Source: an uncultured Pirellulales bacterium
GTDB taxonomy: Bacteria; Planctomycetota; Phycisphaerae; Sedimentisphaerales; Anaerobacaceae
Direction: 5' to 3'
Length of the DNA: 26,144 bases
Assembly: GCA_964634515.1 (NCBI GenBank)
Contig: CAZWME010000001.1
Span: 1 to 26,144 of the forward strand
Below the pieces are notes generated by a model. It was not told where the DNA came from. It saw nothing but the letters and a program-made list of their open reading frames with translations, and did no database searches. Position numbers and translations under genes: made by a program. Shown piece by piece: positions 4,156-24,173 of the stretch; position 1 is the stretch's first letter; every line of letters begins with the position of its first letter.

Positions 4156-5358
4156 ATGGGAATGTTCGATAATACAGCGGACAGCTCAAAGGCTCGCAAG
4201 AGGAAAGAAGGCACACTTGCCAAGCTCGACCGAATGAGGAAAACCCTGAACCATCAGGAGCCGGACAGAGTTCCTGTGAGCGATTTCTTCTGGGGCGGTT
4301 TTATAACACGCTGGCGAAAGGATCTGAATCTGCCCGATGATGCCAATCCTTATTATTATTACGACCTGGACTGGACTGTTACCGTGTCCAATATGGACCC
4401 GTTTATCCGGCCGTTTGAGACCCTGAAGGAAAACAACGAGGAAGTTATTCTGAAAACCGGTTTTGGTGCGATTTTGCGGAAGAAATTTTCTGACCCTATG
4501 CCCGAGTTTGTTGCTTTTGAAACGGACACCTTAGAAAAGCTGGAAGCTCTTGAGTTTGACGACCCTTACGACAAAAGAAGATATTTCCAGGCGGGTGACA
4601 ATCAAATCGCCGGTGTCGGGGACGGCTTCGAACGGAATTCGCCGCCCTGGATTGAAACCGTAAAATCTTTATGGCCGGACTTTCCTGTATTCGGCAGTAT
4701 TATAGAATGCAACGAATGCCTGACCCGCCTTATTGGGCCCGAGAATAATATGCTATGGATAGGAATGCATCCCGAGCGAATGGGTAAAGCTATCGACCGG
4801 ATTGGACGGTTCTATCTTGAATGTGCAAAGGCTGAAATCACAGCGGCCGAAAATCTTTTGGACGGCTTTGTCATCTGGGGAGACGTGGCCTATAGGAATG
4901 ATATGTTTTTCTCACCCGACTATTGGCGCCGATACTTCAAGCCATGGGTCAAGGCAATCGTAGATTACGCTCATGCAAAAGGCCTGATGGTCATCTATCA
5001 CGGTTGTGGCAATATTAACAAAATCCTCGATGACTATATCGAGATTGGTATCGACGCATTGAATCCGCTGGAGGCCAAGGCGGATTTGGATGCTGTGCAG
5101 TTGCGCCGCAAATACGGCCAGAGGTTAGGCATTTGCGGAAACAGCAATATAAAAATATGGGAAGCCGGCCGCAGGGAGCTTATACGAAAGGAAATTTTAA
5201 GAAAGCTCAATGCCGCAAAAGGCGGTGGCTATGTTTTCCAGTCAGACCATTCCGTAAGCAGCAATGTCTCGGGGCATACTTATGATTATATCGTAAACCT
5301 TGTTCGCCAATTCGGACAATATCCCCTTGATTTGGGCCGGTTCAATGAGGCAATTTGA
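4156..5358 (+). CDS. Uroporphyrinogen decarboxylase/MtaA-CmuA methyltransferase superfamily protein
   Basis: 400 aa. R-x-x-x-x-L-x-H-x-EPDRVP start, DGFVIWGDVAY, YHGCGN, GIDALNPLE, and GGGYVFQSDHSV. SD GGAG lies upstream. Confidence 0.85.
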   Translation: MGMFDNTADSSKARKRKEGTLAKLDRMRKTLNHQEPDRVPVSDFFWGGFITRWRKDLNLPDDANPYYYYDLDWTVTVSNMDPFIRPFETLKENNEEVILKTGFGAILRKKFSDPMPEFVAFETDTLEKLEALEFDDPYDKRRYFQAGDNQIAGVGDGFERNSPPWIETVKSLWPDFPVFGSIIECNECLTRLIGPENNMLWIGMHPERMGKAIDRIGRFYLECAKAEITAAENLLDGFVIWGDVAYRNDMFFSPDYWRRYFKPWVKAIVDYAHAKGLMVIYHGCGNINKILDDYIEIGIDALNPLEAKADLDAVQLRRKYGQRLGICGNSNIKIWEAGRRELIRKEILRKLNAAKGGGYVFQSDHSVSSNVSGHTYDYIVNLVRQFGQYPLDLGRFNEAI

Positions 5359-5376
5359 TAATTCCTGGAGGAATAA

Positions 5377-7650
5377 ATGCTGACACTTAAATCTCAGAAA
5401 ACATTTTGGTTAATATTATGTGTGGTTGTGTTTTGTTCCTGCACTGGTTTTGGGAAAGAAAAGGCAGCTCAAAATTTTAATGATATCGAAACTTACAACG
5501 TCCTCTGGAGTAGTCCGAGCAAGGACAGTTCCGGTTCGATGCCGATAGGCAATGGAGACATCGGCTTAAACCTCTGGGTGGAGGAAAACGGAGACCTCCT
5601 GTTCTATATAAGCAAGACCGACGCCTGGAGTGATAACTGCCGGCTGCTCAAACTTTCTCGGGTACGCCTGAAACTTTCACCTAATCCGTTCGGCAAAGCC
5701 GGCCCTTTCTGCCAGACGTTGAAGCTGCGCCAGGGTGAGATTGAAATCATCGCCGGCCAATTGGAAAAACAGGTTGCATTACGCATTTGGGTGGATGCCA
5801 ATCGACCTGTAATTTATGTCGAAGCTGAAAGCAAGAAGTCCTTTAACATTCAATGTAATCTTGAGGTTTGGCGTAACGAGACTCGCCGGCTCAAAGGCGA
5901 TGAAGCCAATAGTGCCCGTGCCCTGACAGGTAACGATGATTATCCTATCATCGTTTATCCGGATGTGGTTCTGCCGGCCCAGAACAATCGCATCGTTTGG
6001 TACCATCGCAACGAGAAGTCCTGTTATCCGGTCACGTTAAAGAACCAGCATCTTGACCGGTTGCTGGCAAAGTATCGTGACCCGCTTCTAAACCGCACAT
6101 TTGGCGGATGCATGAAAGGCGATGGATTACAGGCCATTGATAAGAATATTCTCAAATCAGCCAAACCGGGCAAGCATTTTGTGGTTTCGATTTACCCTCT
6201 GACGGCGCAGACAAAATCCATTGACGACTGGCTGAGTTTGCTGGAAAAACAAATAGCTGCGATTGATGCAATAGATCTGAAGACCGCACGTGCTGCACAC
6301 AGGCAGTGGTGGGAGAGGTTCTGGAAGCGGAGCTGGATTTTTATAGACGGCCTAAAAGATGCCGAAGTAGTGACTCGTGGCTATAACCTCCAGCGATGGA
6401 TAAACGCCTGCGGTGGCCGTGGTACTTGTCCCATCAAGTTCAACGGTTCGATTTTTACTGTTGATGCCAAGGTGGGCAAGGAGCATCTTGACGGTGATTA
6501 TAGACGATGGGGTGGAATGTACTGGTGGCAGAATACCAGGCTGCCTTATTGGTCGATGCTGGCAGCGGGGGATTTCGATCTCATCCAGCCGCTGTTTACG
6601 ATGTACATAAAGGCGCTCGGTCTGTGCCGTGACAAAACAAGGATTTATTATAACCATGATGGTGCTTTTTTTCCGGAAACGATGCACTTTTGGGGCACGA
6701 ACGGCAATTGCGATTTTGGCTGGGGCCATAAAGGGCCTGAAACCGTTAACCGATACATACGCCGCGAATGGCAGGGCGGGATCGAACTAACAGCCATGAT
6801 GCTTGATTATTACGCCATTACACAGGACAGAAAGTTTCTGCGTGATATGCTTTTGCCCCTGGCCGATGAGACCATTACTTTTTTCGACAGGCACTGGCCT
6901 CGCGATGAGCAGGGTAAAATTCGCTTCGAGCCTTCCCAGTCACTGGAGACATGGTGGCAGTGCGTCAATCCCCTGCCGGAGGTTGCCGGACTTAAGTTCG
7001 TACTCAGTGCGTTATTGGAGCTGCCCGAAGAACTGACAACCAACTCACAGCGAAAGTCCTGGAAGAAAATCCTGACCGACCTGCCTGCTGTTCCAATGAA
7101 ACAAGACAAGGGCAAACAAATTTTACTCCCGGCTGAAAAATACAGCGAAAAGCGAAACCAGGAAAATCCCGAATTATACGCCATTTTTCCATACCGGCTT
7201 TTTGGAATTGAAAAACCAAACCTGGAAATTGGAATTGAGACCTATCAGCGACGAGTGCATAAGGGTACCGGAGGCTGGTATCAGACACCGGTCCAGGCCG
7301 CGTATCTTGGCTTAACGCAGGACGCCTCGAAATTCGTTACTCAGAATTTCTCAACTAAGCACAAGGGCAGCCGTTTCCCCGCATTCTGGGGGCCCAATTA
7401 CGACTGGATTCCCGACCAGGACCACGGCGCCGTAACGATGACAGCTCTGCAGCGAATGCTTATACAGACAGACGGCAGGAAGATATACCTGCTGCCCGCC
7501 TGGCCCAATAACTGGGACGTCGATTTTAAACTTCATGCACCTTTCAAGACAATCGTTCAGGGCACTGTCCGAAATGGACGAATTGAGAAACTCTACGTCA
7601 CACCTGAAAGTCGGCGTAAAGATATAAAAATTTTGAGTGGCAAATCCTAA
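5377..7650 (+). CDS. Secreted DUF5703-domain, GH95-like glycoside hydrolase (alpha/alpha barrel)
   Basis: 757 aa. Signal peptide, SMPIGNGDIGLNLWVE, WWQNTRLPYW, SQSLETWW, ENPELYAIFPY, WIPDQDHG and LLPAWP-x-x-WDVDFKLHAP. Perfect SD GGAGG, 18 nt after the upstream stop. Confidence 0.8.
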   Translation: MLTLKSQKTFWLILCVVVFCSCTGFGKEKAAQNFNDIETYNVLWSSPSKDSSGSMPIGNGDIGLNLWVEENGDLLFYISKTDAWSDNCRLLKLSRVRLKLSPNPFGKAGPFCQTLKLRQGEIEIIAGQLEKQVALRIWVDANRPVIYVEAESKKSFNIQCNLEVWRNETRRLKGDEANSARALTGNDDYPIIVYPDVVLPAQNNRIVWYHRNEKSCYPVTLKNQHLDRLLAKYRDPLLNRTFGGCMKGDGLQAIDKNILKSAKPGKHFVVSIYPLTAQTKSIDDWLSLLEKQIAAIDAIDLKTARAAHRQWWERFWKRSWIFIDGLKDAEVVTRGYNLQRWINACGGRGTCPIKFNGSIFTVDAKVGKEHLDGDYRRWGGMYWWQNTRLPYWSMLAAGDFDLIQPLFTMYIKALGLCRDKTRIYYNHDGAFFPETMHFWGTNGNCDFGWGHKGPETVNRYIRREWQGGIELTAMMLDYYAITQDRKFLRDMLLPLADETITFFDRHWPRDEQGKIRFEPSQSLETWWQCVNPLPEVAGLKFVLSALLELPEELTTNSQRKSWKKILTDLPAVPMKQDKGKQILLPAEKYSEKRNQENPELYAIFPYRLFGIEKPNLEIGIETYQRRVHKGTGGWYQTPVQAAYLGLTQDASKFVTQNFSTKHKGSRFPAFWGPNYDWIPDQDHGAVTMTALQRMLIQTDGRKIYLLPAWPNNWDVDFKLHAPFKTIVQGTVRNGRIEKLYVTPESRRKDIKILSGKS

Positions 7651-7779: not shown

Positions 7780-8472
7780 CTAACCGTCGAGGGCCATTCG
7801 GCAGAAAAGGTTAAGTGCCTGAAGAACACGCTCTCGTTTCTCGGAGATTTGAAGGAAAGGCGCCCGCGAAAGCTCGACCTGTACCCAGGGCAGCTCGGAT
7901 GAATGCGAACGGATAATATAGCCGCCTTTGAACGGATGATTGATCGATATTTCACTCTCGAATGATGCCTCCAGGCATTGAACCAGTTTTTCAAACCACT
8001 CCTGTGGGCATGTCCCATGTGCATTACTCAGACATATTTTGGGCCGCTCACAATCCGAATCTGTAGCAGAAGGAGGGCCGACGGCGGCCATAGTATGACA
8101 ATCGACGCCGAATTTGACATCGGCCGCAGATTCTAAAAGCCGCTGATGATAAGGGCGGTAGTAACGCTCCAGAAGAATCTCGACCGCATCTTCGGGGACG
8201 GGCTGACGATATACACTGGCGTTGTAGCAGGTATGGGTTTTAACGATACCGTCCCGGCCTCTATCATCTTCGGCCCGATTCATGTCCACTATTGTGCGGG
8301 CAACATCCGTTGTGATATGCGCTGTCACCTCGGATTTCAGCTCGTATATCTCTGCTGACCCCTCGTCACTGTCGGCAAGTATCTGCTCCGGTGTCAGCAC
8401 ACAATATTCCTGCACTTCCTGTGGCACGGTCAGACCGGCATGAGGGACCGAAATAATTAGTGGCAGTTTCAT
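7780..8472 (-). CDS. N-formylglutamate amidohydrolase family protein (Zn-carboxypeptidase-like fold)
   Basis: 230 aa. PLIISVPHAG, DSD, ARTIVDMNR, YYRPYH-x-x-L, VDCHTM, INHPFKGGYI, and WVQVELSR. The start overlaps the GGT stop (ATGA, 8469-8472). Confidence 0.9.
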   Translation of the reverse strand: MKLPLIISVPHAGLTVPQEVQEYCVLTPEQILADSDEGSAEIYELKSEVTAHITTDVARTIVDMNRAEDDRGRDGIVKTHTCYNASVYRQPVPEDAVEILLERYYRPYHQRLLESAADVKFGVDCHTMAAVGPPSATDSDCERPKICLSNAHGTCPQEWFEKLVQCLEASFESEISINHPFKGGYIIRSHSSELPWVQVELSRAPFLQISEKRERVLQALNLFCRMALDG

Positions 8473-10082
8473 TTGGTTGGGCCTCTGGCCTCTCCGTCAC
8501 GACGCGGATCCGCCACACCTACAAACTTATTGTCCTCGTGTATCACTAACTGGACGCAGCCGAGATAAAACGAATAGGGCTCTCTTACATCGAGACTAAA
8601 TCCATGACTTTCCAGTGTCGTTGGAATATCACTACGCATCCGGGATGCTTCCAATGATACCGTCCCTTCAGCAGAACAATGCAGGCGAGGCGCGTCCACG
8701 GATTCGAACGGCAACTGTTTGCCAAGCCGAAGGAAGACCTGTGCGATAGACGAAACGATACGCTGACTCCCCGGAGATCCAATCGCCATCCAGGGTTTTC
8801 GGTCTTTGAAGATAATTGTCGGCGCGACACTGGCCCAGGGCACGGCATTCGGTCGCAAATAGTAAGGATGTTTCATGTCCTTCTCTTCAAACGCCGTCAT
8901 ATAGTTATTATATAGAAAGCCGAGTTCGGGCGTTGCCACACACGAGCCGTACACGCGCTCAATAGACTGTGTTAAAGCTGCCACGTTTCCAAACCTGTCC
9001 ATAACAGACAAATGTGTAGTATCCCCACCTGTCTTTATGTTTTTCATCGACCAGCGGGCGATATCTCTGGCATAATCCGTACTTAGCATTCGCTTCTGCG
9101 GGACCTGTGCATACGAGTTTGGATCGAAAGGCCTGTCTTTGCGGTCGCGATTGGCCTGTCGTATGGCCTGGGCAAGCGTCAATGCTCCTTCTGGCGTGTC
9201 CACATTTCGATACTTCTTCGGAATATGACTTATAATATTAAGCAGCTCTATTAATGTCCTGCCTGCCCCCGGCGGAGGAAATGTTACAATCCTGAATTCT
9301 CCAAACTGACTGGAAACTGGTTTTCTTTCGATAGGCCACGGTATTTGGGCCAGATCCTCTTTTGTAATGAGCCCTTCGTTCCGGGCCATATCTTCATGTA
9401 TCAACCTTCCGATTTGCCCATGATAGAAATCAGTAACTCTCCTGCGCCCGAGTCTTCTCAGTGTAGCGGCCAACGCAGGCTGAGAAAACTTTTCCCCGAC
9501 CTTAAAGGTTTTCTTGCCATCCTTCAGGAATAGCTGGGCCGCCGGCCCTTGCCGTAAATGCTTTCTTACTCTTCGAGTCAGCTTACGTTGAAGCTCGCTG
9601 ATACGATATCCATTCTCGGCAAGTTGAATGGCAGGCTGCAGGATTTCAGCAATCGGGATGGTTCCAAAGTGTTCCAGCGCATAGGCCAGAACCGCCGGTG
9701 TGCTGGGTACTGTTGTGGCTTGGAATCCTCGTAAGCGCTGCTCAATGCTCATGTCCTGCACCGAAGTTCTGTTAGGAGCCCTGGACGAACCGTCCAATGC
9801 AAGTGTTCGGCGTGAACGGGCCAGATGGATTAACGCCATCGTCTGACCGCCCAGTCCGGAGGCTGCCGGTTCACACACACCCAGAGCGAAAGCAGCGGCT
9901 ACGGCCGCATCGATGGCATTACCTCCCGACTCAAGAATTTGGACCGCCGCTCCGGTTGCAAGATAATGCTGTGTACTTGCCATGCCGTATTCTGATACGG
10001 ATACACGCTGGGGCTGGTAAACTTTGGCAGGGCTAAAGTCTCGTACATCTGTGTCGTCCTGTTGCTTCGGCGTAGAAGCCAT
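8469..10082 (-). CDS. ggt: Gamma-glutamyltransferase-family Ntn hydrolase, cytoplasmic, with an atypical substrate pocket
   Basis: 537 aa. GGNAIDAAVAAAFALGVCEP-x-x-SGLGG, TVPSTPAV, FPPPGAG, autocleavage site GGD|T355-THLSVMD, and GSPGS-x-RI. No signal peptide. The start lies 6 nt after the upstream stop. Confidence 0.92.
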   Translation of the reverse strand: MASTPKQQDDTDVRDFSPAKVYQPQRVSVSEYGMASTQHYLATGAAVQILESGGNAIDAAVAAAFALGVCEPAASGLGGQTMALIHLARSRRTLALDGSSRAPNRTSVQDMSIEQRLRGFQATTVPSTPAVLAYALEHFGTIPIAEILQPAIQLAENGYRISELQRKLTRRVRKHLRQGPAAQLFLKDGKKTFKVGEKFSQPALAATLRRLGRRRVTDFYHGQIGRLIHEDMARNEGLITKEDLAQIPWPIERKPVSSQFGEFRIVTFPPPGAGRTLIELLNIISHIPKKYRNVDTPEGALTLAQAIRQANRDRKDRPFDPNSYAQVPQKRMLSTDYARDIARWSMKNIKTGGDTTHLSVMDRFGNVAALTQSIERVYGSCVATPELGFLYNNYMTAFEEKDMKHPYYLRPNAVPWASVAPTIIFKDRKPWMAIGSPGSQRIVSSIAQVFLRLGKQLPFESVDAPRLHCSAEGTVSLEASRMRSDIPTTLESHGFSLDVREPYSFYLGCVQLVIHEDNKFVGVADPRRDGEARGPTK

Positions 10083-10088
10083 GATATA

Positions 10089-12242
10089 TTATCCCTCTGC
10101 TTGTTTAGCTAAAAATTCGGCGACCAACAGTGTTCTTTGAAGAAGGCTGATCCTCTCCACCGCCTCGTTTGGTGTGTAGGCGTCCCTTGTAACGGGTCCC
10201 AGGCCGCAAACAACTGGCGTCGATGAAGGCACGAGTCCCGCAACCGAAGGCCACAGGGAAGACTCTTTTCCGAACGGTATTTCCCAGTTGGATGCAACCT
10301 CTGCCAGATCGGCAACGAGACGCTTGTTTGCTGTACGGTTTTTCATTGCCGGCCGGTCCGAGACAATCTCAAGTTGACAGCGAAAACCATTCTCGACGAG
10401 CATATCTCTTATTGACGCCTCCGCATCATCCGCCGTCTCTTTGTCGCCGTAACTTAGCAGGATAGTGGCCTCGACCTTATGCGGAAGAAGCATGGGGAAC
10501 GTAGTCGGGTGGATATCTGAGACAGCAATGGAAAGGCGATTCTGCTTGGAAGAGAGTTTTGAGATGTCCTCCAGTTTGTTGCATACCCAGCGCAGTATTT
10601 CAGGTTTTTTTCTGGCTTTGCCGAGTCGGGCGGGTACGTCTTCTGCAACAAGCTGATATTTCCGCCAACCACGCCGCTCTATTACAACCTTGTTCTTAGG
10701 ATTACCCGGCCGCAGAACCAGAACTCGCCTGGCTCTTTCCGCGGCGGCTCTGATTATACTACTGCTTTCTATGTTATCTCTGCCTTCATCGGCAAAGTAA
10801 AGAACTCCAACGGGCATCGAATTCAACTTTCGCAGACTTTTTAACACCTTGAGAACGAATTCCAACATCACCAGGGGAGCACGGGAAAGACCTATACCTT
10901 CTCCATACAGCCACTCCGGAGTTCGGCGGAACACCTGTATGGGTATCTCAGGTGTAAGCGCCACGTCTAAATGCCCGACAAAAAGAGTCCCGTCTGTCAG
11001 GCCGGACTTTGTCTGCCAGGTCCAGACGGTCTTGTTGTCCGTTAATTCCTCCACGGCTTCAAGGCCTATTTCCTCGAGTGTTTGGCTGAGTTTCATCGTC
11101 GCCTGTTGAATCCCGAACGGATCAGAGGTCCTGCTATGCAGGTTTGTCCAAATCCGCAGCCGCCTCTCGATTTGGTCCCGCCGCTGAGTTAAGAATGACA
11201 TAACTAACTGGCCCGTATCGGTCGACTTTTTTGTTATCCTGACCGGCTTCGGAGTACCGAAATAACGGGTACTTGTCACCTCAACGAGACGATTTACCAG
11301 CGCCGGAAAATCAAGACCTACATGTTGAGCGCCGATCGTATATGAACCATGTTCACCCATGCTCGGCAGGCTGTTCACTTCGAGCAGTTGGAGATTTTCC
11401 TCGGCATCTAAACGCATGTCCACACGGGCGCAGTCAAAGCAGCCAAGGACCTCGAAGGCCCTGCGGGCAAGTTTTTTGGCTTCTTCTACCGTCTCTTCGC
11501 TCACTCTTGCGGGACACTCGAATCCGATCTCGCGTCCGGATTGGTGGACCTTGTCTTGATATGTGTAAATAGCCGGCCCGTCTCCCGGGAACAATAATTC
11601 CACCGGCGGGAAAGCCTCCGATGGATTGTTCCCTATTAAGCCGACATTTATCTCGCGACCCTCGATATATCGCTCCGCAAGTACAGGCTGTTTGAAAGCC
11701 TCAAAAATCGTCCGTGCAGCTTCCCTTAATTCACTCTCATTATGGACTACTGTCACGCCAAAGGACACGGATTCATTTTTAGGTTTTACAACCATGGGAA
11801 ACGATAGATCCGTCGGCAATTCATCTTCCCATGAGTTTAGTACAACGAACTCCGGCGTCGGCAGCTCGTGCTGACGAAAGATTATTTTGGCAACTACCTT
11901 GTCGAGGGCAAGGCCGTGTGCAAGGGGGCCTGAGCCCACATAGGGAATCCCGACCATCTCGAGAATGCTCGGAACATGTGCGTATCTCGCCTGGCCCTGA
12001 ATCCCGTAAGAGACATTGAAAACCAGACCCGGGAGTTCTCCCTTCAGGACCTTAGGCATGAAATCCTCCAGCCGCTCGATTAGGTCCTTGTCCCCCTCAA
12101 CCTCTTTGACCTGATGTTTTCCAGCCTTGAGTGCATCCGAAATGCGCTTTATTGTCTTGTGCCCGATTCGTTCCCGGTTCGGAACTCCGAAAAGGTTTAT
12201 GACATTTTGAGAATCACGATTATAAACTACTGCTATTTTCAT
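10089..12242 (-). CDS. Fusion protein: Ddl-like ATP-grasp ligase (aa ~1-330) plus degenerate M20/M25/M40 peptidase domain (aa ~345-717)
   Basis: 717 aa. ATP-grasp motifs GIPYVGSG, LALDKVVAK, VVKPKNESVSFGV, ERYIEGREINVG, ARVDMR and LLE288-V-N290-SLP. M20 motifs FVGH424LD, LYGEG, ADEG and VVCGLGP...TPNE. Confidence 0.9.
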   Translation of the reverse strand: MKIAVVYNRDSQNVINLFGVPNRERIGHKTIKRISDALKAGKHQVKEVEGDKDLIERLEDFMPKVLKGELPGLVFNVSYGIQGQARYAHVPSILEMVGIPYVGSGPLAHGLALDKVVAKIIFRQHELPTPEFVVLNSWEDELPTDLSFPMVVKPKNESVSFGVTVVHNESELREAARTIFEAFKQPVLAERYIEGREINVGLIGNNPSEAFPPVELLFPGDGPAIYTYQDKVHQSGREIGFECPARVSEETVEEAKKLARRAFEVLGCFDCARVDMRLDAEENLQLLEVNSLPSMGEHGSYTIGAQHVGLDFPALVNRLVEVTSTRYFGTPKPVRITKKSTDTGQLVMSFLTQRRDQIERRLRIWTNLHSRTSDPFGIQQATMKLSQTLEEIGLEAVEELTDNKTVWTWQTKSGLTDGTLFVGHLDVALTPEIPIQVFRRTPEWLYGEGIGLSRAPLVMLEFVLKVLKSLRKLNSMPVGVLYFADEGRDNIESSSIIRAAAERARRVLVLRPGNPKNKVVIERRGWRKYQLVAEDVPARLGKARKKPEILRWVCNKLEDISKLSSKQNRLSIAVSDIHPTTFPMLLPHKVEATILLSYGDKETADDAEASIRDMLVENGFRCQLEIVSDRPAMKNRTANKRLVADLAEVASNWEIPFGKESSLWPSVAGLVPSSTPVVCGLGPVTRDAYTPNEAVERISLLQRTLLVAEFLAKQAEG

Positions 12243-16545: not shown

Positions 16546-17634
16546 CTACAACTGTCTTTTTACGGCCTCGGCATGGATCAGCTCGAACACGGCCTTGATG
16601 AATTCACTCTCAAGGCCGAGCTGCTTGGCTTTAGCCATGTGGTCCTTCAAAAGCTGCTCCCATCTGTTAATCTGAAGAACGGGGATATTGTGCTCCTGTT
16701 TGAGTTTACCTATTTCATCAACCCACTTCATCCTTCCCGCAAGGTCCTGTATGATTTGTGAGTCTGAATGGCTGATCTCTGTACGCAGGCGGGCTATCTT
16801 TCTTTTTACCTGTTCATCTGTTATAGCCGTATTTCGAGCCCGAAGCTTTTTGAGCAGCTTCATCAACGCGTTGGGTGTAATTTGCTGTTTTGAATCACTC
16901 AGCGCCCGGTCCGGGTCGTTGTGAGTTTCTATCATAAGACCTTTGATGCCTAAATCCAATGCAGTCTGAGAGATAGGTTCTATGAATTTGCGCCGGCCCC
17001 CTATATGGCTCGGATCACAAATAAGTGGCAGGTTCGGCAGCAGCCTTTTCAGTTCGATAGGAATCTGCCAGTTTGGATTGTTGCGGTATGCCATACGAAC
17101 GTAAGTTGAGAAACCTCTGTGTATGGCCGCAAGCTTTTTTATCCCTGCGTTATACAGCCTTTCGATGGCACCCAGCCAAAGACCTAATTCGGCATTGATA
17201 GGATTCTTCACGAGTATCGGCACATCGACTCCTTTGAGAGAGTTGGCTATCTCCTGTACAAGGAACGGATTCACCGTCGTTCTTGCTCCAATCCAGAGAA
17301 TATCAACGTCATTCTCCAGACACAGTTCAACGTGCTGTGTATTCGCCACCTCGGTTGTAGTAAGAAGGGAGGTCTCAGCCTTGACCATCTTGAGCCATTC
17401 CAGGCCGACTTCGCCGACCCCTTCAAAAGTGTTGGGCCGCGTACGTGGTTTCCAGATTCCCGCACGAAAAACCTTGACATGGGGAGATTTTACTAATTTA
17501 CGGGCTATCATCTTTACTTGCTTTTCAGACTCCGCACTGCAGGGTCCCGCAATCAACCAGGGAATCCTCTTAAATTTCAACCAGGTTGAGATATCTGATA
17601 TATTATGATTCAGCTTTTTCAGGTTCTCAGTCAT
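16546..17634 (-). CDS. Bifunctional DAHP synthase (type I-beta, N-terminal) / chorismate mutase (AroQ, C-terminal)
   Basis: 362 aa. IAGPCSAES, RAGIWKPRTRP-x-x-FEG, WIGART, VKNP, HRGF, CDPSH, MIETH and SD-x-x-QQ. The C-terminal LR-x-x-I-x-x-x-D...R...IG-x-x-K...RW pattern is AroQ-like. Confidence 0.92.
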   Translation of the reverse strand: MTENLKKLNHNISDISTWLKFKRIPWLIAGPCSAESEKQVKMIARKLVKSPHVKVFRAGIWKPRTRPNTFEGVGEVGLEWLKMVKAETSLLTTTEVANTQHVELCLENDVDILWIGARTTVNPFLVQEIANSLKGVDVPILVKNPINAELGLWLGAIERLYNAGIKKLAAIHRGFSTYVRMAYRNNPNWQIPIELKRLLPNLPLICDPSHIGGRRKFIEPISQTALDLGIKGLMIETHNDPDRALSDSKQQITPNALMKLLKKLRARNTAITDEQVKRKIARLRTEISHSDSQIIQDLAGRMKWVDEIGKLKQEHNIPVLQINRWEQLLKDHMAKAKQLGLESEFIKAVFELIHAEAVKRQL

Positions 17635-17816: not shown

Positions 17817-19889
17817 CTAACGGCGGCGGATTTTTAATATGCAGAGCTTCCGTGGCAGCAGCTCGAAAAAGACCCGCGCCCTGCCCCCTTTGACTTCAAA
17901 TTTATCTGTTACCAAAGGCTTTTGTTCTTCACCATTTTTAATTGTTAAGGTAAGAATATATTCACCGCCCTTGAGTAAGTAAAATTCCGCCGACATCGGG
18001 CGTTTTTCCCTGCCAAAGTGGAACAGCTCCGCTTCAAATTGTTCGGTTCCCGATTCTCTCACTAACGCTGCGATATTACGCGCCTCTGTCAGCCAGCGGA
18101 CAGCGTTCAGAGGAAAGTACCCGGCACCGCCCGGATCGCCGGTTACCGTTGAATAAAGAAGCGAGGGATCCGGGGTGTGAAATGTTACAGCAGGTTCGGC
18201 TAATGTATCGTTACCTGTAAAAAGTGTCGGGAACCGCAGGACTCGGTCGGTATAGCGGACTTCGCTGGTGTATCCTTCAAAATTCACCCGCAGGGCTTCA
18301 GCGTTGTTGCCGAGCGCAGAAACTAATGACCGGAACTCACCATCCATCCTAAAACGAATATACGGTAAACTCTCCCTGCCTATAAGCTCATCGAACTCGG
18401 TATTGCCTGTCAGGAACCTGTATTTGGCGATCACACTCGACAGGCCGCCAAGTCTCGATGCGCACCATGCTTCGGTGCCGGGAGACGGTTCCTTTTTCGG
18501 CGGTGAGCTTAGATACTTCAGGCGGGCATTTGCCACCGAACGGATTGGTTCGAGGTACTTGGCCTTACCTGTGATGTAATGAGTTAGTAAAAGTGTGTGG
18601 GTCATCTGGCTCATTGCGCTTGGGTAAAGATAAAGTGTATATTCGCCATGATTCCTGGGGTCCCACCAGTCAGGCGACAGGCCGCCGACCCTTCCGTCGG
18701 GCCAGTGGATTGCCGTAGGAATAATACCGGCAGGCTTTCCGCGTTCTGCTCGCGCCGCCGCATCGACCCATGTATCCATCCAGGCCGAAAAGAGCCTCGT
18801 CAAATCCGCATCAGCGGTCCGCTGCCAATAAAGCAAAGTTGGCTGAACTACCCTCGGATGATATACAGTGTCACAGGCTCGCGCTGGATTCGTGTCGATT
18901 TTGTTTGCCGTGAAATACGTGCTTTTGAACTGCAGGAAACCGCGTTCGTTTCGAGATGCCCAAAGCTCCTCCATTAGCTCAGCCATTCGAAGCGCACGCC
19001 TGCGCCAGAGGTCATTGTCCGGATCGATGTGCATCATCGGTGTTATAACATCGGCAGAGTCCTCGGCGGTATGTTCGACGTCCGACATTCTGGTTGTATA
19101 GCCGAGCTTCATGTGCTGCTGGTCCATTAGTGCCGTGGAAAACCTCGCTTGTGCACGCGAAATCTTCGGGCTGTCAAATCCAATCAATACCGGCACCCAC
19201 CAACGCCACATTTCACAGTCGTCCCCCCATCCGCCGCCGTATTCACCGTTTTCCTGCATGCGGTTGTCAATCCACCACTCAATGATATCAGCCAAACGTT
19301 CCAGACCCTCTCGCTGGTAAACGGCCCATTGAGGCGCGCCCGAGACGGCCTGATATTCCTTATATGGGCCGGTGGGCTGACCGAGATACATCCGGACAAT
19401 CTTGTTTTCGGGAAATGCCCGGGCCGCTTTCTCAAAAAATCCCCGCGCTATACCAAAAAATTCTCGCCGTCTTTGTGGAATACTCCAGACCCCGCCGGAC
19501 TCCATCGTGTACCAGATAACCATCCTGCCGCGATACAGCCAGGTCAATGGATAAAGCACAGAACTCTCGGGAATCTGGAAGTCAAAGTCCCTATTGCGGC
19601 TTACCTGCCGACCGAAATAGTCCAGTCGTTTTTCGCCTAACCAACGTTCGATCTGTGTGATGAGTTTGGTTAGGTCGTTCCTTAAAGAATTATCCAAATT
19701 CCCTCGTTCCCTGAGTTGTCTTAAATAGTCCAGACGGACCTCATCGCTAGCGGCATTACCTGCCCGTTGAATAACAGCCGCAATGGAATCGTCCCCGGCT
19801 TGAGCTTGCGTTGCACAAAGCACAACGGTCAATCCTGTCACCAACCACAAAAACACCAGTTGCCGTCTTTTACTTTGAAACCGCTCCAT
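17817..19889 (-). CDS. Secreted hypothetical protein (~690 aa), probably an alpha-helical toroid with a C-terminal beta-sandwich
   Basis: Long open ORF. The start is reassigned from 19928 to ATG 19889, which follows SD GGAGG. Signal-peptide-like N-terminus ending AQA-G. Acidic and aromatic motifs YGGGWGDDCEMWRWW and SDVEHTAEDSAD. No family recognised. Confidence 0.75.
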   Translation of the reverse strand: MERFQSKRRQLVFLWLVTGLTVVLCATQAQAGDDSIAAVIQRAGNAASDEVRLDYLRQLRERGNLDNSLRNDLTKLITQIERWLGEKRLDYFGRQVSRNRDFDFQIPESSVLYPLTWLYRGRMVIWYTMESGGVWSIPQRRREFFGIARGFFEKAARAFPENKIVRMYLGQPTGPYKEYQAVSGAPQWAVYQREGLERLADIIEWWIDNRMQENGEYGGGWGDDCEMWRWWVPVLIGFDSPKISRAQARFSTALMDQQHMKLGYTTRMSDVEHTAEDSADVITPMMHIDPDNDLWRRRALRMAELMEELWASRNERGFLQFKSTYFTANKIDTNPARACDTVYHPRVVQPTLLYWQRTADADLTRLFSAWMDTWVDAAARAERGKPAGIIPTAIHWPDGRVGGLSPDWWDPRNHGEYTLYLYPSAMSQMTHTLLLTHYITGKAKYLEPIRSVANARLKYLSSPPKKEPSPGTEAWCASRLGGLSSVIAKYRFLTGNTEFDELIGRESLPYIRFRMDGEFRSLVSALGNNAEALRVNFEGYTSEVRYTDRVLRFPTLFTGNDTLAEPAVTFHTPDPSLLYSTVTGDPGGAGYFPLNAVRWLTEARNIAALVRESGTEQFEAELFHFGREKRPMSAEFYLLKGGEYILTLTIKNGEEQKPLVTDKFEVKGGRARVFFELLPRKLCILKIRRR

Positions 19890-21300
19890 TATTCTTGACT
19901 CCTCCGAAATCTTCATTATCGTTTTCATTTGCGTATATTTTGTTGATTAGAGTAAAAGCGATGAGATTGCAGAATACGCCGATGACCAGACCGTCTATTC
20001 CCATCGGCGATTCCAATAAACCATTCCATATCAGCACGCCCGTTGCTCCGGCTATAATACCGCTGAAAAATCCCGCCTTGGTAACCCGGGCACCCAGGAA
20101 CACAGCCGCTAATGGAACGAGGATGACAGGCGCCCAGAAACGATAAGCATAAATAAGAATATCGAGAATACTGCTGATTTTGATGGCGAATATAACAGCG
20201 AGAACACCCACAAAGCAGTTTGTAAGTTTAGCTAAGAGCAGTTCCTGCCGCTCGGGCAGGGGATTTTTCCGAAGAGGTTTCACAATATCGTTGATACAGC
20301 CGGTGGCCGCTCCATTGAGAAAAGAGTCCGCTGAGGACATCACTATCGAAATCACCCCGGCTATGACAACGCCCCGCACTCCCACGGGCAGCACCGTACG
20401 AATAACATAGGGCATTGCCAGATTGGGGTCCAGTTTCGGGTCCATCGCCAGGGCGACCAGTCCGATAGCGCCCGTAATCACAAAAAACGGAATCGAGAAA
20501 ATACCGCTAAGCATAGTGCCGCGGGCTGTGTGCGCAGCATCCTTGCCGATAAGCAAACGCTGAACGTAAGGAGGCACAAGCGTCTCACCCAACAAAAAAG
20601 TAAGGAACAGTGACAGAAAGGCTCCGATTGTCATAGTATTGGACGGGACTGAAAAGTGACCTGCCGGTACAGCCTCTCTGATAGCTGAAAAACCCCCAAG
20701 CTTTACAATGCCGAATATAAGAGCTGCCGGAAGTCCAACGGCAAGGACGCAGAACTGGATGATGTCTGTCAGCACTACAGCCCGCATCCCGCCTATCGTT
20801 GAATATGCTATTACAATTCCGCAGCCAATCAGGATGCCCCAGATCTGTTCGATGCCGACAAACTCCTTGCAGATGAGTCCCATTGCCCCCACCTGTGCAC
20901 CCACAATCCCTGCGCAAAGGAAGATAGAAAAAAAACCAGTTATGATTTTTGCCGGCTTGCCGTATCCCAGCTCCATAATGTCACCCACAGAGATAACGTT
21001 GGGAAAATTGTCCATCTTTGGCGCAATAAACCTGGCAACAAGAATCTCTTTAAGACTGAATCCCCAAAGCACTACGATATTTGCAATACCAAAGCGAAAA
21101 ACCTTCTCTGCGTTACCTATAGAAAATCCACCTCCTATGAAAGATGCGGAAAGGGTCGCGAAAATCACAAACGACGTATAAGACCGGTGAGAGACCGAGA
21201 ACTCCTGAAGACTCTTCATACCCTTTCCACTCCACAATCCCACCAAAAGGATTGCGAATAAGTAGAAGATAATAATTACATAGTCCAGATAATTCAGCAT
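19870..21300 (-). CDS. Sodium:solute symporter (SSS; PutP/PanF-like) family transporter
   Basis: 476 aa with about 13 hydrophobic segments. LDYVIIIFYLFAILLVG, ATLSASFIGGG, YSTIGGMRAVVLTDIIQF, YVQRLL and SIVMSSADSFLNG. Confidence 0.93.
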   Translation of the reverse strand: MLNYLDYVIIIFYLFAILLVGLWSGKGMKSLQEFSVSHRSYTSFVIFATLSASFIGGGFSIGNAEKVFRFGIANIVVLWGFSLKEILVARFIAPKMDNFPNVISVGDIMELGYGKPAKIITGFFSIFLCAGIVGAQVGAMGLICKEFVGIEQIWGILIGCGIVIAYSTIGGMRAVVLTDIIQFCVLAVGLPAALIFGIVKLGGFSAIREAVPAGHFSVPSNTMTIGAFLSLFLTFLLGETLVPPYVQRLLIGKDAAHTARGTMLSGIFSIPFFVITGAIGLVALAMDPKLDPNLAMPYVIRTVLPVGVRGVVIAGVISIVMSSADSFLNGAATGCINDIVKPLRKNPLPERQELLLAKLTNCFVGVLAVIFAIKISSILDILIYAYRFWAPVILVPLAAVFLGARVTKAGFFSGIIAGATGVLIWNGLLESPMGIDGLVIGVFCNLIAFTLINKIYANENDNEDFGGVKNNGAVSK

Positions 21301-21537: not shown

Positions 21538-22557
21538 TTACTCGAAAATCCTGTTTAATTTTCTCCGTTGCCTGCCTTCCCAGTTTCGCCCATGATAAAC
21601 ATAGCTGATTATCAGCGGCAGGACGGAGGTGGCTTCTGCATAAACCATCTGTTCGTCAAGAGTACTAACTTTCCCCCATGAGTGGGCCTCTTTAAGTGTT
21701 GAGCTTGAGCAGGCGCCATCTCTAACATCAGCAACAGTAATCTGTACGGCGTATTTATGCATACTCGATTCTTCTCCCAGAATTTCCGCACAAACAACCG
21801 TGTCCTGAGCAAAGTTCTTCGGAACACCGCCTCCGATCATAAACAGTCCCGATACCTGAGATTTTATTTTTATTTCTGTCAGCTCTCTGAAGTCTTTAAC
21901 AGAGTCGATGGAAATATGGTTATCTTCATTTTCGACCTGATGTTTTACCAGGCCAAACCCGGCACTTGAATCCGAAAATGCCGGGCAGAATATCGGCACA
22001 TCATTTTCATAAGCGGCCTGAACCAGAGAGTCGGATTTTTTTGCATTGTTGTTAACAAGATACTTACCCATCTCACGGATAAATTCTCTTGATGAATAAG
22101 CTCCCGGAGAAAGTGAATCGGCTATTGCTTTTATAGTATTATCACAGACCTGAAGCTGTTCTTCGTCAATAAGCGTGTCATAGATCCTGTCGATATATAG
22201 TTTTCTGAGTATCTTATCGTCCGAATATGGATTTCCCTGATAGTGCTTAAAACCAAGGGCTTCAAAGAAATCCATATCAACTATTGTTGCTCCGGTTGCG
22301 ACAATAACATCAACCATATTATGCTTTACCATATCGACATAAATCTGCATACATCCTGCCGCACTGGTACTCCCGGCTATGCATAACATAATTGTGCATT
22401 CTGCGTCATTTATCATCTTGACGAGAATATCAGCCGCTCCCGCGGTATCTCTTGCCGTAAAGGACATATTTTTCATCGCTTCGATTATTTGAGTAGAATC
22501 GAAAGATTTTATATCTATATGTTTTACAGGGTCTTTAAGAAAATCGCTCTTTTCCAT
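21538..22557 (-). CDS. speY: Bacterial deoxyhypusine-synthase-like protein, probably 1,9-bis(guanidino)-5-aza-nonane synthase (SpeY type) or homospermidine-forming
   Basis: 339 aa. MSFTARD, IAGSTSAAG, VATGATIVDMDFFEALG, RIYDT, PIFCPAFSDSSAG, IGGGVPKNF and EAHSWGK (Schiff-base Lys). The start lies 2 nt after the agmatinase stop. The DHS family call is firm; the speY symbol is tentative. Confidence 0.8.
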   Translation of the reverse strand: MEKSDFLKDPVKHIDIKSFDSTQIIEAMKNMSFTARDTAGAADILVKMINDAECTIMLCIAGSTSAAGCMQIYVDMVKHNMVDVIVATGATIVDMDFFEALGFKHYQGNPYSDDKILRKLYIDRIYDTLIDEEQLQVCDNTIKAIADSLSPGAYSSREFIREMGKYLVNNNAKKSDSLVQAAYENDVPIFCPAFSDSSAGFGLVKHQVENEDNHISIDSVKDFRELTEIKIKSQVSGLFMIGGGVPKNFAQDTVVCAEILGEESSMHKYAVQITVADVRDGACSSSTLKEAHSWGKVSTLDEQMVYAEATSVLPLIISYVYHGRNWEGRQRRKLNRIFE

Positions 22558-22559
22558 TT

Positions 22560-23414
22560 TTATCCTCTGAACTTATAGCTCAGCAATTTATAGATGAGCT
22601 TTGCCGCCATAAAATCCGGGGCCGTAGTTCTGCTGTTCGGGCATAATTCCACAACGTCAAAACCGACGAGGTTTTTCTTTTCGCAAACGCTTTTCAGCAA
22701 TTCCAAAACATCATACCACAACAATCCCCCCGGTTCGGGCGTTCCCGTCGAAGGCATTATAGACGGGTCAAAAACATCCAGGTCGATTGTAATGTAAACG
22801 TTTTCAGTAAGTTTTGTGATGACCTTTTTAATCCAGTCCGTTTTGTTGTAGATGTCCTTTGCAAAAAAAACTCCGGCTTTGTCCATAGAGCCTTTTTCGG
22901 AAGAATCCATACTCCTGATGCCCACCTGTACAATGGGACAAAGCTCTTTCGTTCTGGCCATAACACAGGCATGGTTATATTTTGACCCGTTATATTCTTC
23001 TCTTAAATCCGCGTGGGCGTCCAGTTGTAAAACAGTAAGGTTCTTAAAGTGTTCTGCGTGCGCCTGGATAGAGCCGATACTGACAGAGTGTTCTCCGCCG
23101 ATAACCACAACGAATTTGTTGTTTTCGAGATAGTACCGCGCGGTTCCGTTAACAGCATCAATCATCTCGGTGGTGGTGATATCTCCGCCTGTTGTCTCTT
23201 CTGTAAATATGCCTTTCTTATAAACCTCTGAATCGGTCTCTATATCATATAACTCCATGTTTGCAGATGCTTCGATCATTGCTGCCGGCCCTTTGTCGGC
23301 GCCTTTCACCCAGGTGCTCGTTCCATCGTAGGTCACAGGAATAATAACTATTTCTGCATTTTCCGGTTCGGAATATTCCTGGGGCAGATATCCAAAGTTA
23401 ATTCTTTCTTTCAT
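22560..23414 (-). CDS. speB: Agmatinase (ureohydrolase family)
   Basis: 284 aa. YDGTSTW-x-x-GA-x-x-GP, GGEHS, DAHAD, QVGIRS, YITIDLDVFDPS, TGTPEPGG and DVVEL. All Mn ligands are present. Confidence 0.92.
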   Translation of the reverse strand: MKERINFGYLPQEYSEPENAEIVIIPVTYDGTSTWVKGADKGPAAMIEASANMELYDIETDSEVYKKGIFTEETTGGDITTTEMIDAVNGTARYYLENNKFVVVIGGEHSVSIGSIQAHAEHFKNLTVLQLDAHADLREEYNGSKYNHACVMARTKELCPIVQVGIRSMDSSEKGSMDKAGVFFAKDIYNKTDWIKKVITKLTENVYITIDLDVFDPSIMPSTGTPEPGGLLWYDVLELLKSVCEKKNLVGFDVVELCPNSRTTAPDFMAAKLIYKLLSYKFRG

Positions 23415-23442
23415 AGTAGATAAATCCCGTTAAAAAATTCCG

Positions 23443-23619
23443 GGAGCCTCTAAAAATTGCTTTTGTCACGAGAACGTGCGAAATTTTCCCCGGTTTTGGC
23501 AAAAGGTCAAAATCGCCGCAGGCATAGCTAAAACTGTGTCGAGGACGAATTTTGGCCTGACAACGCCGCCTTCAGGAGATTGCAGCCGTTCACAGTAAAA
23601 ATGAATTTGTAGAGGTTTC
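23443..23619. mobile_element. MITE-like/palindromic intergenic element (~177 bp)
   Basis: Imperfect terminal inverted repeats GGAGCCTCTAAAAATTGCTTTT (23443-23464) and revcomp of the right end GAAACCTCTACAAATTCATTTT, 17 of 22 matching. Internal hairpin arms AGGTCAAAAT (23504-13) and ATTTTGGCCT (23549-58). No transposase and no clear target-site duplication. Confidence 0.55.
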
Positions 23620-23621
23620 AT

Positions 23622-24173
23622 TTAATCAAACAAAAACATTGCCATTGCTACGGTTGTTGTCCAGAGAGATTTCTGTCCTTTTGCAGTTTGGGTTATGTTG
23701 GTAGTTCTAATAAATAGGCCGCTGGATTTATATGCCTGCTCTTTTTCCGACCAGGCCGTGTTCGGATCCAGTTCCATCCCCAACGTTGTGCCCAACATGC
23801 CGGCCGCCAGGTCTTCGGCCATGTCCTCCGCCTGTTGGCGGTTCATACCGTGACCGTGCACCTCGCTGAGATATCCCCATTTTTTGCTGTCTTTGGGAAC
23901 GGCAACCCCTATTGAGGAAGCCACCAATCGCCCATGCTCATCCGTATCGGCTCTGGCCATAACGCAGAAGCCTATTTCTCCAGGAACCAGAGAATTGATA
24001 CCCTTTTCCCGGCTGATCATTTTGCATTTCGGTGGTAATATCGATGAGACCTGAACCAGGTTCTGTTGGGCCACACCTGCCACACGCAGCGCCTCTTCGA
24101 AAGATTTAAGTCGATATTTGTGCCGCCCGACTCCTTTGGTCAAAAAGACTTTGCTTGGAAGTAGATTAATCAT
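23622..24173 (-). CDS. pdaD: Pyruvoyl-dependent arginine decarboxylase
   Basis: 183 aa. P-x-K-x-FLT-x-G-x-G, SFE-x-ALR-x-AG, NLV-x-VS43-S44-ILPP (autocleavage site), YLSE-x-H, and W-TTTVA. Lies upstream of agmatinase. Confidence 0.9.
   Translation of the reverse strand: MINLLPSKVFLTKGVGRHKYRLKSFEEALRVAGVAQQNLVQVSSILPPKCKMISREKGINSLVPGEIGFCVMARADTDEHGRLVASSIGVAVPKDSKKWGYLSEVHGHGMNRQQAEDMAEDLAAGMLGTTLGMELDPNTAWSEKEQAYKSSGLFIRTTNITQTAKGQKSLWTTTVAMAMFLFD

Follow-up and report, generated by a model that had tools for sequence, protein, structure and literature searches.

We analysed a 26,144-nucleotide stretch of DNA from an uncultured Pirellulales bacterium (assembly GCA_964634515.1, contig CAZWME010000001.1, positions 1 to 26,144; hereafter, "the window"), and in particular a gene whose product joins an ATP-grasp ligase resembling D-alanine–D-alanine ligase (Ddl) to a domain of the M20 peptidase family. 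We find that this M20-like domain is under purifying selection and is not decaying, and that its aligned residues are predicted to be incapable of forming the canonical di-zinc M20 site. As a canonical M20 enzyme the domain is very probably dead, and it presumably has neither bound metal nor activity; a homologue that appears to lack the essential catalytic residues and is kept by selection is a pseudoenzyme. On balance, we consider it probable that the domain is a metal-free pseudo-peptidase that serves to bind a ligand, to dimerise the ligase or both, while partner enzymes carry out hydrolysis.

Positions 10089-12242 of the window, on the reverse strand, form a single intact open reading frame (ORF) of 717 amino acids (aa). 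Its parts are listed below, with residues of carboxypeptidase G2 (CPG2) as the reference; the codon coordinates of key residues were checked against the window sequence.

10089-12242, reverse strand: fusion gene, Ddl-like ATP-grasp ligase plus M20-like domain; first gene of a three-gene operon
11253-12242, reverse strand: ATP-grasp (D-Ala-D-Ala-ligase-like) domain, aa 1-330
11244-11267, reverse strand: inter-domain linker R326-Y-F-G-T-P-x-P333, with invariant columns
10092-11225, reverse strand: CPG2-type M20 domain predicted to lack the metal site, aa ~340-717, comprising the catalytic-domain halves and the lid
10347-10697, reverse strand: lid/dimerisation sub-domain, aa ~516-632, equivalent to CPG2 ~213-325 and modelled with high confidence by AlphaFold2; residues R539 (H229 in CPG2), M584 (N275), H588 (new invariant), S597 (R288) and R630 (R324)
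10971-10973, reverse strand: H424, equivalent to CPG2 H112, the sole kept metal ligand
10881-10901, reverse strand: motif YG-E448-GIG-L452-S453-R454 in place of YGPGIADDK; L452 stands for D141, so that the bridging ligand is gone
10782-10787, reverse strand: E486-G487, equivalent to CPG2 E175-E176; general base kept, ligand E176 replaced by Gly
10710-10712, reverse strand: R511, equivalent to CPG2 E200; acidic ligand replaced by a basic residue
10626-10628, reverse strand: R539, equivalent to CPG2 H229 (lid histidine)
10479-10481, reverse strand: H588, in the lid; new invariant
10353-10355, reverse strand: R630, equivalent to CPG2 R324 (PepV R350), binder of the substrate C-terminal carboxylate
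10206-10208, reverse strand: C679, which is Asp in unfused relatives (DGLGP to CGLGP)
10176-10178, reverse strand: Y689, equivalent to CPG2 H385; ligand gone

Membership of the C-terminal half in the M20 family is solid by both sequence and fold. The Pfam model Peptidase_M20 (PF01546) matches the C-terminal part with 20.9 bits, which is under the gathering score of 24.6. Since this match is insufficient alone, we set homology on NCBIfam, HMMER, profile-versus-PDB and Foldseek comparisons. Searched alone, the C-terminal half matched the NCBIfam models NF005602 (E = 1.6e-15) and NF004788 ('glutamate carboxypeptidase'; E = 7e-9), both over their full length, with scores under the NCBIfam family cut-offs; the LysK family also appeared among the profile/NCBIfam matches. 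Across 1.84 billion representatives, exhaustive searching with HMMER gave 582 matches, among them unfused M20 proteins of ~390 aa with E-values of 1e-19 to 1e-11, and a profile built from the domain and its unfused relatives matched CPG2 (1CG2) over the full length with E = 3e-78. Comparison of an AlphaFold2 model with CPG2, which the initial annotation had proposed, gave the same answer: with this model as the Foldseek query, CPG2 was the best match in the PDB (E 1e-21; template-modelling score 0.74 over ~400 columns, at ~17% identity), followed by PahZ2, PepT and DapE, and the N-terminal half matched Ddl structures. Thus, the closest relatives in sequence and fold are CPG2 (Pseudomonas sp. 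RS-16; 1CG2, 6XJ5) and the unfused ~390-aa M20 proteins. The two-sub-domain M20 layout, an alpha/beta catalytic domain with an inserted lid, is present in the model, whose mean predicted local distance difference test (pLDDT) score is 71.6 and whose M20-like part lies mostly at 75-95. The sole low-confidence stretches of the M20-like domain are the loops at 433-451 and 686-694, which hold the equivalents of D141 and H385 and have pLDDT <50; these may be compatible with a loss of ordering by metal, and could equally reflect the shallow alignment of 28 sequences.

We assigned residue equivalences using a CPG2 sequence rebuilt from the profile alignment, the numbering of which was checked (chain index 90 is H112). 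In the MAFFT alignment, H112 corresponds to H424, D114 to D426, D141 to L452, E175 to E486, E176 to G487, E200 to R511, R324 to R630 and H385 to Y689; phmmer agrees for the first five catalytic positions, and hmmalign for all positions. The claim of the initial annotation that four of the five metal ligands are lost holds under all three methods: only H424 is kept from the CPG2 set (H112, D141, E176, E200 and H385), and L452, G487, R511 and Y689 take the other places. The general base, which had likewise been described as kept, is present as E486 in 84/84 sequences of the clade to which the fusion belongs (clade 1, defined below), as is the carboxylate-binding arginine R630 (84/84). Residues of the lid have also been replaced, with R539 for H229, M584 for N275 and S597 for R288; the corresponding columns in 39 unfused relatives are H in 39/39, N in 36/39 and R in 38/39, respectively. 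The domain therefore has the CPG2 layout of catalytic domain and lid, together with H112, D114, D174, E175, R324 and E390, but it differs from CPG2 in the replacement of D141, E176, E200, H385, H229, N275 and R288 and in its position behind an ATP-grasp ligase. Equivalents of CPG2 H229 and N275 (H269 and N217 in PepV) bind either the C-terminus of the substrate or the transition state, and R288 of one CPG2 monomer touches H229 and N275 of the other (PMC6271292). CPG2 R324 corresponds to PepV R350, the binder of the C-terminal carboxylate, and its mutation in PepD abolishes activity (PMC6271292).

The loss of the metal site extends across a large family. A search of 5.8 billion proteins gave 1664 matches; the best 120 of these are all fusions, nearly all of them full-length, with at least 60% identity, and come mostly from metagenome-assembled genomes (MAGs) of Phycisphaerae/Sedimentisphaerales. 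Relatives turned up in 167 species when one genome per species was scanned. We examined 80 of these loci, which span Planctomycetota (Phycisphaerae, Scalindua/Brocadiaceae and Pirellulaceae), Verrucomicrobiota, Desulfobacterota, Chromatiaceae, Acidobacteriota, Latescibacterota, Gemmatimonadota and Cloacimonadota; cultured carriers among them include Desulfoluna limicola ASN36, Thiohalocapsa halophila DSM 6210 and Imhoffiella purpurea AK35. For the analyses described here, clade 1 comprises 84 loci from >10 phyla, and clade 2 comprises 80 loci (L084-L163) from marine and sediment metagenomes, sampled with a 3-sequence alignment as the query; a metagenome scan with the P0203 sequence alone found nothing. 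The full-length ~717-aa architecture is seen in 75/84 clade 1 loci, and ORFs of ~700 aa in 73/80 clade 2 loci. A neighbour-joining tree has three groups, namely clade 1, clade 2 and the canonical proteins with CPG2 nested within them, and does not resolve the branching order among the three. The residues found at the five ligand positions in clade 1 (n = 84) were as follows.

Position 424: H 72, N 6, Q 4, F 1, P 1
Position 452: S 38, L 26, T 19, A 1
Position 487: G 83
Position 511: R 56, N 15, others 13
Position 689: Y 57, H 11, others 16

The numbers of sequences by how many of the five ligand columns keep a metal-competent residue were as follows.

Clade 1 (84): 0 kept in 8, 1 kept in 69, 2 kept in 7
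Clade 2 (80): 0 kept in 24, 1 kept in 15, 2 kept in 40, 3 kept in 1
Unfused relatives (39): 5 kept in 38, 4 kept in 1

Thus, we saw no fused member with a complete metal site among the 164 fused genes of the two clades, which suggests that the site was probably lost at, or shortly after, the fusion event. The replacements in clade 2 differ from those in clade 1 (D141 to E/R, E176 to S/T, E200 to K/S/N and H385 to R/G). The E200 column is basic in both clades, with R in 56/84 sequences of clade 1 and K in 42/80 of clade 2, and position 539, which is H in all of the unfused relatives, is R or K in 77/84 clade 1 orthologues. H424 is kept in the fusion as the initial annotation had said, yet it is N, Q, F or P in 12/84 orthologues, and this remaining histidine is accordingly predicted to be non-essential. 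We considered a Ser453-His424-Asp426 triad and rejected it because H424 is not conserved. On whether L, G, R and Y are themselves conserved, the question raised in the initial annotation, the answer is mixed: G487 is near-invariant, and positions 511 and 689 are mostly R and Y, but position 452 varies among S, L, T and A. We conclude that positions 452, 487, 511 and 689 are constrained, yet form no fixed new motif; the real invariants of the family are E448, S453, R454, H588 and C679.

Several observations indicate that selection maintains the domain. When the fusion gene is compared with five close relatives (dS 0.28-0.45), its M20-like domain has a ratio of nonsynonymous to synonymous substitution rates (dN/dS) of 0.10-0.13 and its ATP-grasp domain one of 0.08-0.11. 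Across the 84 orthologues, 66 positions of the M20-like domain are at least 93% conserved, and linker residues P331 and P333 are conserved in 100% of the 84 sequences; the invariance of the linker hints at a fixed interface between the two domains. The old motifs carry family-specific swaps: YGPGxxDxK has become YG-E448-GIGx-S453-R454, DEE has become D485-E486-G487, and DGLGP has become C679-GLGP. With an intact ORF, ligand losses shared by 164 fused genes and this low dN/dS, the argument of the initial annotation against pseudogene decay is borne out, and the finding of ligand losses with a maintained fold across two deep clades upholds its reading of the domain as a conserved pseudo-peptidase. 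Between clades 1 and 2, identity is 18-25% for the M20-like domain, compared with 43-50% for the ATP-grasp domain and 42-49% and 34-42% for the GGT- and FGase-family proteins encoded beside the fusion (see below). This lower identity indicates that the M20-like domain is under looser constraint than the three presumed enzymes, which is easier to reconcile with a module for binding or scaffolding than with a precise catalyst.

The ligase half looks active, judging from its conserved residues. Its ~330 aa match Pfam Dala_Dala_lig_C (PF07478) with 134 bits, and in the PDB it is closest to Ddl enzymes, with 26-31% identity. Residues for ATP/Mg binding and phosphoryl transfer (K115, K153, E190, K231, R273, D275, E288 and N290) show no variation among 28 full-length homologues and line up with Ddl motifs in an alignment to P. 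aeruginosa DdlA. D-alanine–D-alanine ligases (Ddl/Van) are thus the best N-terminal match and share the ATP/Mg residues, but the fusion differs from them in three respects. First, its score against the NCBIfam Ddl models, 184.7 bits, is under the cut-off of 243. Second, the specificity positions are changed: at what we take to be the D-Ala-selecting positions of E. coli DdlB (Y216, S150 and S281/L282, in the numbering we assume), a pairwise alignment to DdlA places Val at the Y216 position and different residues at the S150 and S281/L282 positions. Third, the gene sits in an operon with GGT- and FGase-family genes and not in a cell-wall context. The ligase half is probably not a D-Ala-D-Ala ligase.

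We propose that the M20-like domain would be kept as a non-catalytic part of a putatively active Ddl-like ATP-grasp amide ligase. The old active-site cleft, once an acidic cage for metal, would now be a pocket that is metal-free and more basic, with basic residues at the aligned cleft positions (R454 for K143, R511 for E200, R539 for H229, and R630 kept). The putative pocket would still carry R630 and the Asp-Glu pair D485-E486. Taken together, the loss of four acidic or histidine ligands, the gain or retention of basic residues and the presence of D485-E486 point to a pocket for an anionic, carboxylate-bearing ligand, which would most simply be a substrate, a product or an effector of the attached ligase. 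The retained lid would dimerise the protein as it does CPG2, and hydrolysis of amide bonds would fall to a GGT-like N-terminal nucleophile (Ntn) hydrolase and an FGase-like amidohydrolase whose genes are presumably co-transcribed with the fusion gene. The initial annotation had left a choice among a sensor, an oligomerisation module, a channelling module and a hydrolase with a new mechanism; the evidence leans towards non-catalytic binding or a scaffold.

These two putative partner enzymes are encoded by the second and third genes of the operon.

8469-10082, reverse strand: GGT-family Ntn hydrolase, 537 aa, second gene; PF01019, 372 bits
7780-8472, reverse strand: FGase-family (N-formylglutamate amidohydrolase-like) protein, 230 aa, third gene; PF05013, 136 bits

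The stop codon of the fusion gene lies 6 nt from the start of the GGT-family gene, whose stop in turn overlaps the start of the FGase-family gene by 4 nt (ATGA). These close junctions across 7780-10091 on the reverse strand suggest translational coupling of the three genes, which are flanked by one divergent and one convergent gene. The order fusion-GGT-FGase is found in most clade 1 loci and many clade 2 loci, and the other flanking genes are unrelated. When we clustered the neighbouring ORFs of 84 loci, the fusion was present in 75, GGT in 64 and FGase in 54, and the next cluster, CorA, in 8; no further conserved neighbour, such as a transporter or a regulator, was found beyond the three genes among these 84 loci. 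In four loci (L014, L015, L017 and L026), neither a GGT nor an FGase gene adjoins the fusion gene within the available sequence, indicating that the module is not obligatory everywhere. Two of these loci, L014 (labelled 'Pirellulales') and L015 ('Dehalococcoidia'), have identical match scores, which suggests that one sequence has been binned under different phyla and that the taxon labels of MAGs need caution. We found no convincing case, among the loci, of a natural split of the ligase and the M20-like domain into separate genes. Three candidate splits were rejected: the contigs of L063 and L069 appear to be frameshifted or mis-assembled, and in L051 both members of a pair of paralogues are complete. 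In the latter locus, from an Acidobacteriota MAG, the paralogous fusions (4774-7188, forward strand, and 9428-11881, reverse strand) lie on either side of the GGT and FGase genes.

The GGT homologue has the nucleophile Thr (T355, in 'DTTH') and no obvious signal peptide. At N411, Q430 and D433 of E. coli GGT, which we take to be the gamma-glutamyl-binding positions, a pairwise alignment in this assumed numbering places E, Y and A; the protein may be an Ntn amidohydrolase of another specificity and not a classical gamma-glutamyl enzyme. CPG2 cleaves off a C-terminal Glu, GGT cleaves off gamma-Glu and FGase takes the N-formyl group off Glu, and a glutamate-centred pathway is a weak lead, against which the changes at N411, Q430 and D433 weigh. 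We also entertain, as a speculative and rather doubtful proposal, that the operon encodes a pathway, spread by horizontal transfer, for the synthesis and turnover of an acidic amide or peptide metabolite, in which the M20-like domain holds or anchors a carboxylate-terminated acceptor in position for the ligase or, in clade 1, is a hydrolase with a new centre of Cys/His/Glu type.

Three points weigh against a metal-free, ligand-binding pseudo-peptidase. E486 (84/84) and D485 are retained, as a domain that is still catalytic would show; the invariant residues are just mildly enriched near the old catalytic positions; and the structural model, at its mean pLDDT, is of moderate quality only. With these in mind, we weighed four other explanations. 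The one that survives best, though we think it unlikely, is that the domain is purely a scaffold for oligomerisation or stability, in which the lid dimerises the ligase and the old cleft binds nothing. Dimerisation via the lid is established for CPG2-type M20 enzymes (PMC6271292), the lid sub-domain of the fusion is intact and confidently modelled, and the domain evolves faster than its catalytic partners, all of which would suit a scaffold. However, a pure scaffold has no need for invariant polar and charged residues in the old motifs (E448, S453, R454 and D485-E486), or for the M20 carboxylate-binding Arg in every clade 1 orthologue.

It is decidedly improbable, in our estimate, that the domain remains a hydrolase or transferase with a non-canonical centre, which in clade 1 would be a mononuclear or Cys/His site drawn from E448, C679, H588, H424 and E486 and would make the protein a true ligase-amidase bifunctional enzyme, resembling glutathionylspermidine or trypanothione synthetase-amidase. 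The invariance of E486 and D485 is what such a centre predicts, E448, H588 and C679 are clade 1 invariants that are absent from the unfused relatives, dN/dS among close relatives is as low as that of the ligase domain, and ligase-amidase fusions provide a precedent (PMC2427367). Nevertheless, clade 2 has the same architecture and operon and none of these residues: its column 137 is S/T, column 279 is D/N/Y, column 375 is D/E/G, and E175 is often D/Y/N. Moreover, H424 is dispensable, lid residues H229, N275 and R288 are gone, the domain diverges between clades ~2x faster than the partner enzymes, and the operon already encodes two hydrolases.

We regard it as very unlikely that the ligands are present and the alignment is wrong: identity to CPG2 is just ~17% and the loops with the D141 and H385 equivalents are poorly modelled, but phmmer, MAFFT and hmmalign are concordant, the columns are anchored by flanking motifs (HxD, YGxG, DE and GLGP...E) common to the 39 unfused relatives, and there is no conserved Asp, Glu or His near 452, 487, 511 or 689 except E448 and E486, which are already accounted for. 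Scarcely credible is a decaying remnant or an artefact of annotation or assembly (a fused pseudogene, or two genes run together by a frameshift), for although the Pfam M20 score is under threshold and ORFs are split or shortened in a few loci (L063 and L069), the same ~717-aa architecture recurs in 75 clade 1 and 73 clade 2 independent loci, dN/dS is ~0.1, the linker is invariant, and the split cases are isolated contigs inside otherwise fused lineages.

A metal-free pseudo-peptidase attached to a ligase has partial parallels. Pseudo-peptidases are well documented in several metallopeptidase families. The transferrin receptor and nicastrin are dead homologues of clan-MH (M28-like) peptidases that serve as binding modules; they resemble the fusion in combining a conserved co-catalytic metallopeptidase fold with lost ligands and a role that, in the fusion, would likewise be non-hydrolytic. 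However, they are eukaryotic membrane proteins of M28 type, whereas the fusion is bacterial, M20-type, cytoplasmic and joined to an enzyme. In the LysW pathway, the ATP-grasp amino-acid ligase LysX is paired with LysK, a separate, active di-metal M20 enzyme. The S. aureus hmrA-ldmS pair similarly combines an ATP-grasp ligase with a member of the M20 family, but as separate proteins, the M20 partner being an active di-metal enzyme (PMC9486568). Glutathionylspermidine/trypanothione synthetase-amidases (PMC2427367) have, in one polypeptide, an ATP-grasp amide ligase and a domain of a hydrolase family that acts on the same type of bond, as the fusion does; their CHAP amidase is active and opposes the ligase, whereas the hydrolase-family domain of the fusion appears to be without catalytic machinery. 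The hallmark of the GspSA/TryS type, an intact hydrolase site beside the ligase, is absent from the fusion, in which both metal ligands and lid residues are gone. A review of pseudopeptidases covers the concept without an M20 case (PMC11266112). Our full-text literature searches, whose coverage is incomplete so that an earlier mention is possible, returned no description of the fusion or the operon, and no described M20 pseudo-peptidase, whether or not fused to an ATP-grasp ligase.

Elsewhere, the window encodes a sulfatase, a GH95-like protein, a Laminin_G_3 protein, a DAHP synthase-chorismate mutase and a polyamine cluster; this content is typical of a polysaccharide-degrading Phycisphaerae genome and has no relation to the operon. 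The DAHP synthase, of the type I family, carries a chorismate mutase type II domain at its C-terminus (16546-17634, reverse strand). A 703-aa ORF at 17817-19928 on the reverse strand matches no Pfam family at E<=1e-5 and shares ~59 nt with the start of the sodium:solute symporter gene that lies downstream (19870-21300). The polyamine cluster (21538-24173, reverse strand) consists of genes for a pyruvoyl-dependent arginine decarboxylase (23622-24173), an arginase/agmatinase-family protein (22560-23414) and a deoxyhypusine-synthase-like protein (21538-22557).

Homologues of the fusion are currently annotated in databases as 'ATP-grasp domain-containing protein' or 'D-alanine-D-alanine ligase'. 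This annotation conceals half of the protein and implies a function in the cell wall, which our evidence does not bear out. The ligand of the probably dead domain would give a handle on the substrate of a widespread pathway, and the cultured carriers make the module experimentally tractable. More broadly, the case would show the natural conversion of a di-zinc hydrolase into a binding module.

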